In this document: piece after piece, positions 14,135 through 14,154 of the stretch
Position numbering within the stretch: position 1 is the first letter of the stretch
Layout: each line of letters begins with the position of its first letter
Source: a phage
Sequence record: PZ452614.1
DNA: 39,092 bases
Reading direction: 5' to 3' (one strand)
Made by a program: the position numbers and the translations under genes
Notes under the pieces: generated by a model
Seen by the model: only the letters and a program-made list of their open reading frames with translations
Databases searched by the model: none
What the model was told of the DNA's origin: nothing

Positions 14135-14154
14135 GTTTGTGACATGTCACGGTG

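Follow-up and report, generated by a model that had tools for sequence, protein, structure and literature searches.

Ribbon-helix-helix repressors such as Arc and Mnt of phage P22, CopG, MetJ, and antitoxins bind short symmetric operators that overlap promoters, usually that of their own operon. DNA-bound regulators can also repress as roadblocks from sites in or after genes, as do LacI, CcpA, CodY, and PurR, and in phage lambda the gene for the regulator Q is followed by the DNA site of this protein and the terminator tR', ahead of the late genes. Other known dyads are the SlmA site, with the consensus GTGAGTACTCAC, and the CRP site, TGTGA-N6-TCACA. The site of the chromosome-organizing protein MatP, matS, has the 13-bp consensus GTGACRNYGTCAC (PMC6907758).

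The element described here is a 12-bp palindrome, GTGACATGTCAC, found in a window of 39,092 nt (the whole stretch of DNA that was analyzed). The window is Escherichia phage phiV10 (NC_007804.2), an epsilon15-like temperate podovirus of the genus Uetakevirus, rotated such that position 1 of that record corresponds to window position 11878; its sole difference from the record is one 12-bp tandem unit ATAACCAGTCAT fewer, at 6638. These tandem units adjoin an iteron-like array in the replication gene (6470–6640), in which CCCAAAAACGGGAT occurs about four times with a 24-bp period.

The palindrome resembles the operators of ribbon-helix-helix repressors in being short and symmetric, and the phage protein p55, its proposed binder, has a predicted fold of the same type with a strand that appears to change partly in step with the center of the site. 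Unlike those operators, which lie over promoters, the palindromes lie at 3' ends, over stop codons, by terminators, or inside genes, and p55 has an added zinc ribbon. The sites share with roadblock repression a position downstream of promoters, in or after coding sequence, and an expected effect that would be independent of orientation, but their pairing with stop codons and intrinsic terminators is systematic, and they travel together with the regulator gene. SlmA and CRP sites are similar as 12-bp dyads or in their GTGA/TCAC arms; the former was rejected because the central four bases of the palindrome differ at positions essential for SlmA, and the latter because the spacing is 6 in the CRP consensus and 4 in the palindrome.

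Copies, conservation, and consensus of the palindrome

An earlier note, made from the sequence alone, had placed exact copies of the palindrome at 14139–14150 and 31370–31381 and a copy with one mismatch (GTGACATGTTAC) at 11874–11885. These placements are correct, and an exact and fuzzy search of the window recovered all three together with a fourth copy that the note had missed, GTGACATGGCAC at 17183–17194, which also has one mismatch. The fourth copy is common to phiV10 and its close relative TL-2011b only and is absent in epsilon15, SPN1S, and Tyrion; given its location within coding sequence and the lack of conservation past the closest relative, it is probably a chance occurrence. The features of the window that bear on the palindrome are collected in table 1.

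Table 1. Palindrome sites of the phiV10 window with the neighboring genes and terminators
Feature	Position	Strand	Remarks
Gene p55 (PhiV10p55, 112 aa)	11539..11877	+	Proposed palindrome binder
Site 3, T-GTGACATGTTAC-G	11873..11886		One-mismatch variant; holds the p55 TGA stop (11875–11877)
Intrinsic terminator, GCCGCCAACTATGGCGGC then TTTATTTT	11927..11944	+	Between p55 and terS
Intrinsic terminator hairpin, TTGTTTTAT tail	14115..14134	-	Ends the p03 unit; weak in the plus direction
Site 1, T-GTGACATGTCAC-G	14138..14151		Candidate 14-bp operator between convergent terL (+) and p03 (-); 4 nt to the p03 stop and 4 nt to the hairpin
Gene p03, accessory, Phage_gp49_66 family	14155..14526	-	Stop 4 nt from site 1
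Gene p21, 46-aa membrane protein	31222..31362	+	Last structural-operon gene before site 2
Site 2, C-GTGACATGTCAC-A	31369..31382		7 nt past the p21 stop; abuts the terminator stem
Intrinsic terminator, AGGCCGCTTTCGCGGCCT then TGTTTTT	31382..31399	+	Terminator of the structural operon
Degenerate relic, ATAGCATGGCAT	38483..38494		At the Rz stop, end of the lysis operon; five mismatches

The argument that such a repeat is improbable, with an expectation of about 0.002, is not valid because this figure fits a 12-mer specified in advance, whereas 246 different 12-mers recur in the window. The proper test is whether any perfect 12-bp palindrome occurs twice, and this was the case in 21 of 1,000 sequences simulated with a first-order Markov model (p≈0.02); perfect 12-bp palindromes as a class number 13 in the window versus 10.7 expected. 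Within the window, the repeat alone is only modestly significant, and the decisive support therefore comes from other genomes, where conservation of the palindrome rules out a chance origin.

Comparison with related phages showed that the palindrome is conserved at equivalent places despite diverged flanks. Epsilon15, SPN1S, and Tyrion each have the exact 12-mer at the positions of all three phiV10 sites, TL-2011b has it at two positions, and Klebsiella phage BUCT711 and Enterobacter phage BUCT554 have it at two or three; the flanking sequence differs in every case. At site 3, the exact palindrome is found in most of 80 close relatives, and the T of phiV10 is thus a minority variant. The counterparts of the relic at the Rz stop are GTGACATGTCAT in SPN1S, GTGACATGGCAT in epsilon15, and GTGACATGCCAT in BUCT554. 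Relatives of the BUCT711/BUCT554 type (loci L086, ~380–430, and L087, ~8200–8258, and IMG/VR loci such as L098 and L103) have no terminator after site 3; there, terS is preceded by a promoter (TTGACT..TATACT), the LexA box CTGTTTAAATATACAG, and one additional gene of 109 aa, which probably encodes an SOS-controlled antirepressor.

Alignment of 195 distinct contexts extends the 12-mer core by one base on each side to the consensus Y-GTGAC-NN-GTCAC-R. Positions -1/+13 are Y/R in 97% of sites, and the information further out is ~0.1 bit. The spacing is strict: among 3.2 Mb of fetched loci, the N2 form occurs in 416 copies, compared with 0 for N0, 4 for N1, 1 for N3, and 0 for N4, and versions with swapped arms are absent (0 in the same 3.2 Mb). 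The central dinucleotide is GC, AC, CA/TG, AG, or GG in other phages, with the arms unchanged. The element is a conserved, strictly spaced dyad that is located mostly at gene ends and travels together with the gene for a ribbon-helix-helix/zinc-ribbon protein.

Unit ends, unit starts, and the p55 family

Two copies had been described as adjacent to intrinsic terminators, and both have a hairpin followed by a T-run beside them, at 14134..14115 on the minus strand and at 31382–31399 on the plus strand. The hairpin at site 1 is conserved in relatives with compensatory changes, and it terminates p03, not terL, since the good T-run belongs to the minus strand. The third copy does lie on the p55 stop, 41 nt ahead of the terminator at 11927–11944; the description of p55 as a late regulator that accompanied it finds no support, given that p55 homologs coexist with Q-like and Ogr-like late regulators. 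Separate Q-like genes are present in ZF40, N15, and phiKO2, all of which carry p55 homologs. A role of p55 as a late activator was rejected for the presence of homologs alongside both the Q and Ogr types and also because the other late operon starts have no sites nearby.

At all three phiV10 sites, the order on the transcribed strand is stop codon, palindrome, terminator. Among 232 distinct contexts, which are centered on p55 and are not independent of each other, a long ORF ends at the site or at most 10 nt before it in 179, the ORF uses the TGA inside the palindrome in 125, and the order of stop, palindrome, and hairpin with T-run on one strand is found in 93, with a gap that has a median of 4 nt and is usually 0–5 nt. 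The p21 equivalents of epsilon15 and BUCT554 likewise stop on the palindrome-internal TGA. The palindrome itself does not qualify as an intrinsic terminator, having a folding energy of -1.2 kcal/mol and no T-run, whereas its neighbors do; it is an element separate from them. Adjacency to terminators is not universal, since sites also occur inside coding regions (gp08 and gp12 of ZF40, repA of N15, and a 107-aa ORF of the early-left region) or directly ahead of ribosome-binding sites (gene 47 of N15, and terS in the phage of locus L199 and Vibrio phage K303). Of the suggestion that the palindrome is coupled to termination or antitermination, the recurrent order of stop, palindrome, and hairpin stands and makes such a coupling plausible; the adjacency as such could stem from very short intergenic spaces.

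Two of these settings recur in several loci. In the 107-aa early-left ORF, which is conserved (PHROG 2479), exact GTGACATGTCAC is found in L207 (543), L210 (2704), L229 (1312), L249 (944), and L267 (3093), and the synonymous positions within the palindrome are invariant while adjacent codons vary. A gene resembling prohead proteases stops on the palindrome TGA and is followed by a terminator and the major capsid gene in L224 (15501/16115), L210 (15542), and L267 (16195).

The 112 residues of p55 are predicted to form a ribbon-helix-helix core preceded by a basic helix at the N terminus and followed by a Cys-rich zinc ribbon at the C terminus. The AlphaFold model has a pLDDT of 91.5, and the modeled core has the features that define the ribbon-helix-helix fold, a type found in proteins that bind double-stranded DNA. 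The protein was assigned to PHROG 536, the family that also includes gp46 of N15 and gp49 of epsilon15, and searches of p55 in Pfam, NCBIfam, PDB sequences, and BFVD gave no name. The family comprises about 150 clusters at 50% identity, which share the basic N-terminal helix and conserved cysteines; homologs in unrelated phages are 31–65% identical, and the hosts all belong to the Enterobacterales, Vibrionales, or Aeromonadales.

In 54 of the 66 loci with a Uetakevirus-type p55, a GTGAC-N2-GTCAC copy coincides with the p55 stop, for which the exact palindrome provides the TGA, or is no more than 5 nt away from it. The final p55 codon in these loci is always NYG while the encoded amino acid varies, revealing that the constraint acts on the DNA. 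The site also overlaps the TGA stop of the p55 homolog in N15, phiKO2, and a Yersinia P2-like phage, and in the myovirus ZF40 it is located 3 nt past the stop of gp22, the homolog in this phage. In L199 and Vibrio phage K303, no site is present at the stop, and the nearest one is 140–230 nt downstream; phages with p55 that lack a stop-codon copy have exact copies about 5–9 kb off on either side (within 10 kb). All 12 complete genomes encoding p55 carry 1–4 sites versus 0.03–0.05 expected per genome, an association that is one of co-occurrence and subject to ascertainment bias because nearly all loci were retrieved through p55 itself. The complete genomes of lambda and P22 contain no sites, these two and one Sf6 fragment being the only controls that are free of p55. 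The three sites of N15 (GTGAC-TG/CA-GTCAC at 28550, 33237, and 39269) have equivalents in phiKO2 (31182, 36062, and 41939): they lie upstream of the terminator of the antirepressor operon, within repA, and on the stop of gene 46 (gp45 in phiKO2), with the next gene starting 13 nt on from this last site.

The center of the site varies to some extent with the β-strand of p55 that is predicted to face the DNA. The strand RK(L/I)E(L/I)VLD pairs with the center AT, the strand RRIDLPLD, from a protein that is 68–73% identical, pairs with CA at two sites of its genome, and strands of the form E-x-R-x-K/R pair with GC or AC; in N15 and phiKO2, the center is CA at all three sites. AT also accompanies other strand sequences (ZF40 and the P0156 group), and the covariation, which is partial and confounded by phylogeny, is suggestive. 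The proposal that the palindrome is a protein-binding site is well supported, if indirectly, by these comparisons, in which a DNA inverted repeat of strict spacing co-occurs with a single ribbon-helix-helix family. We consider it likely that a protein of the p55 family binds the palindrome, and p55 is the most likely binder because the palindrome always travels together with p55, whose gene ends inside one of the copies.

A different motif marks the starts of the units that end in palindromes. TTACC-N5-GGTAA, which the epsilon15 record labels as the operator of the repressor, has eight copies in the window (4738, 4800, 5512, 7843, 7905, 11964, 15129, and 32374), located on both sides of the repressor gene and before p45, terS, p06/portal, and the tail-fiber region. 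With the epsilon15-type operators being this other motif at operon starts, the palindrome was rejected as a repressor operator. The locations suggest that the prophage repressor controls the late operons directly and that the late genes probably have their own repressor-controlled promoters; with such sites at their starts, the downstream operons would need no read-through. The copy at 32374 is enclosed by a perfect inverted repeat (GGAGTGCTTATATTTACC...GGTAAATATAAGCACTCC, 32361–32390) between p24 and the tail-fiber gene.

A candidate p55 operator and the competing readings

We consider the best explanation to be that the palindrome is an operator of p55 at the ends of transcription units and acts on read-through as a boundary, with a probability of roughly one half. 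A p55 dimer would bind the 14-bp double-stranded operator Y-GTGAC-NN-GTCAC-R, and the p55 gene and its site would constitute a portable pair, with one site at the p55 stop in most lineages and one to three elsewhere. The ends marked in this way would be those of p45..p55 (site 3), the terL/p03 junction (site 1), and p06..p21 (site 2), together with the decayed copy after Rz. During lytic growth, p55 would accumulate and then occupy the sites, and the bound protein would form a boundary that limits read-through across operon ends independent of orientation, a roadblock backing up terminators that are efficient in one direction only. We give even odds to the general claim that the function of the site concerns read-through at transcript ends; the narrower claim of a boundary or roadblock, and not antitermination, is tentative, with the odds against it.

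A bidirectional roadblock is favored by the location of two of the three sites at convergent junctions with one-way hairpins, by the starts that downstream units possess of their own, and by the single site of the P2-like phage, which is located at the end of an early operon convergent with the late portal and terminase genes. Counterpoints are that a block over a stop codon would yield nonstop transcripts, that the neighboring terminators already look strong, and that in phages of the L210 type a site and a terminator lie between the prohead protease and major capsid genes, where a block would look harmful and which would fit antitermination better.

The full-text literature that was searched, with the epsilon15 and phiKO2 genome papers outside its scope, contained nothing relevant on the motif, its variants, or N15 gp46. 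Phage regulators with palindromic operators are already known, and what appears to be new is an operator located on the stop codon of its own regulator and at operon ends across phage types. A more far-reaching proposal, which we regard as somewhat unlikely, is that of a previously unrecognized gene-plus-site system that is portable among podo-, myo-, sipho-, and telomere phages of enterobacteria and vibrios, in which the matS-like stop-codon sites, bound by the ribbon-helix-helix/zinc-ribbon protein, would act as protein-dependent bidirectional boundaries or else mimic matS–MatP and so exclude host SMC complexes from phage DNA, with the same sites serving as the ends of cassette exchange. If the operator reading is true, the unnamed PHROG 536 family, which is widespread in prophages of E. 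coli, Salmonella, Klebsiella, Yersinia, and Vibrio, would have a DNA target and hence a testable function. Stop-codon operators at operon ends that complement repressor operators at operon starts would be a phage regulatory layout not described before, and they would allow direct study of the ways in which a compact phage genome keeps convergent operons insulated or times read-through. For the annotation of this phage group, the motif is in addition a simple flag for the ends of transcription units and for the places where accessory genes are inserted.

The alternative that survives best, though unlikely in our estimate, takes the palindrome as an architectural or segregation site, acted on by p55 in the manner of MatP or a centromere protein (by bridging, condensation, or exclusion of SMC) or by host MatP itself, with the closeness to terminators being incidental. 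The arms, GTGAC and GTCAC, are identical to those of matS GTGACRNYGTCAC (PMC6907758), both elements are perfect dyads, a few of which are scattered over each replicon, the predicted fold of p55 would share with MatP a ribbon-helix-helix with extra elements that could read the arms, and the host orders of the p55 family include the same enterobacteria and vibrios. A gene followed by its own site is also typical of partition cassettes; moreover, sites that are intragenic or lie between a stop and a ribosome-binding site have no fixed relation to promoters or terminators, and sites would adjoin terminators simply because the scarce noncoding bases lie there. However, the phage site is strictly 12 bp, not 13, with a center of 2 nt where matS has 3; no matS is present in the window, and the N3 form occurs only once in 3.2 Mb against the 416 N2 copies. 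The phage sites are at gene ends in phage genomes, and p55 differs from MatP in being phage-encoded, in its zinc ribbon, and in having no four-helix bundle or coiled coil; homology of the two was rejected because comparison of the p55-family profile with that of MatP was not significant (E 0.15, probability 0.4%). The central dinucleotide follows the phage protein rather than the host, and lambda and P22, which have the same hosts, are without sites. A partition cassette is also at odds with the Uetakeviruses, which integrate and encode no ParA (phiV10 and epsilon15 both encode an integrase), and SopAB of N15 and phiKO2 use centromeres other than the palindrome. Owing to the one-base difference in spacing, the nonsignificant MatP profile, and the way the site tracks the phage protein, we keep the resemblance to matS as a lead only, toward either similar recognition logic or mimicry and not membership; the near-identity of the arms suggests a testable link with the host machinery that organizes the chromosome. 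Vibrio phage K303 (L203) contains one perfect 13-bp matS consensus, GTGACACCGTCAC, at 19491–19503, as well as three 12-bp N2 sites and a ParA-like gene.

Loading of p55 for antitermination, in which the palindrome-bound protein would pass to RNA polymerase in the manner of Q and the polymerase would then read through a terminator 0–45 nt on, seems to us quite unlikely, and less probable than an architectural site. The arrangement does recall lambda Q, likewise a small, zinc-containing protein, whose gene comes immediately before its DNA site and a terminator, with the late genes beyond: a terminator follows the palindrome in the direction of transcription at each of the three phiV10 sites and in the 93 contexts, p55 occupies the lambdoid Q position (as the final early gene ahead of terS here, and upstream of the lysis cassette in the case of L199 and K303), its predicted zinc ribbon could touch polymerase, and in the L210-type arrangement the capsid gene beyond the terminator must be expressed. 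On the other hand, minus-strand read-through at site 1 would carry transcription from p03 into terL in antisense, the late units seemingly all have repressor-controlled starts of their own that make read-through unneeded, and p55 homologs are found beside Q-like or Ogr-like regulators, Q-like proteins being present together with them in ZF40, N15, and phiKO2. Unlike the lambda Q site, the p55 sites have no accompanying conserved promoter or sigma-dependent pause element, and there are several per genome, including at convergent junctions; some, such as that of N15 gene 47 and those inside genes, have no terminator nearby. p55 has no match to a Q Pfam model, and a promoter-like match is present at site 3 only, with a -10 that is not conserved. 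As a sigma-70 -35 element, GTGACA fits at 5 of 6 positions, and this identity was rejected because sites 1 and 2 have no -10-like partner and that of site 3 is not kept in position by relatives.

That the palindrome together with the terminator is a recombination anchor, the shared end of swappable accessory modules, is in our view very unlikely as the explanation of the element. Homology with relatives does stop within 5–35 nt of sites 1 and 2, and the two sides of site 1 differ, the hairpin side being conserved and the opposite side comprising 21 sequence clusters, most of which are minus-strand genes ending 3–4 nt from the palindrome; insertions adjoin sites in Tyrion, TL-2011b, and the BUCT phages, and in L224 the palindrome flanks an inserted 190-aa ORF on both sides (15501 and 16115). 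Nevertheless, 12 bases fall short of what ordinary homologous exchange needs, the site has no associated nuclease or recombinase, and the junctions may just mirror its intergenic position. An anchor also leaves unexplained why the dyad symmetry is strict, why the flank is Y/R, why unrelated phage types keep the site at the p55 stop codon, and why sites occur in conserved genes. The Sf6 homolog of p03 has a terminator and no palindrome, by which the palindrome was rejected as part of the p03 accessory gene; this homolog and the diversity of genes flanking site 1 indicate that the site belongs to the p55-bearing backbone and that accessory genes were fitted against it.

A conserved RNA structure at the 3' end, which had also been suggested, is scarcely credible as either a small hairpin or a protein-binding RNA: although the palindrome is always transcribed at an mRNA 3' end beside a stop codon, a 4-bp hairpin next to the terminator forms in one of three predicted folds, and the basic N-terminal helix of p55 might loosely recall arginine-rich RNA-binding motifs, the hairpin (-1.2 kcal/mol) is no better than shuffles and is missing from the fold predicted for site 2, the invariant C5 and G8 would be unable to pair across a loop of 2 nt, at sites 1 and 2 the transcribed strand is flanked by a noncomplementary C...A, the sites occur in either orientation and within genes on either strand, and the modeled p55 fold matches double-stranded-DNA binders. 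The weak hairpin, the unpairable C5/G8, the C...A flank, and the occurrence in both orientations are those of a duplex-DNA dyad, and the same weakness and unpairable bases, with the placement at 3' ends, set the element apart from N/nut (boxB) sites.

Annotation near sites 1 and 3

The annotated start of terS (TTG, 11918) drives the ORF across the terminator at 11927–11944; a more likely start is the ATG at 11996/11999, which follows GGTGG and gives a 198-aa product like TerS of epsilon15. Beyond p03, ARAGORN identified a tRNA-Arg (tct) at 14730–14806 on the minus strand that overlaps the hypothetical ORF p04 (14549–14800, plus strand), and since relatives annotate tRNA-Arg at that place, p04 may not be a real gene. 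Two more terminator-like hairpins are located on the minus strand in this region, at 14686..14651 and 14566..14551.
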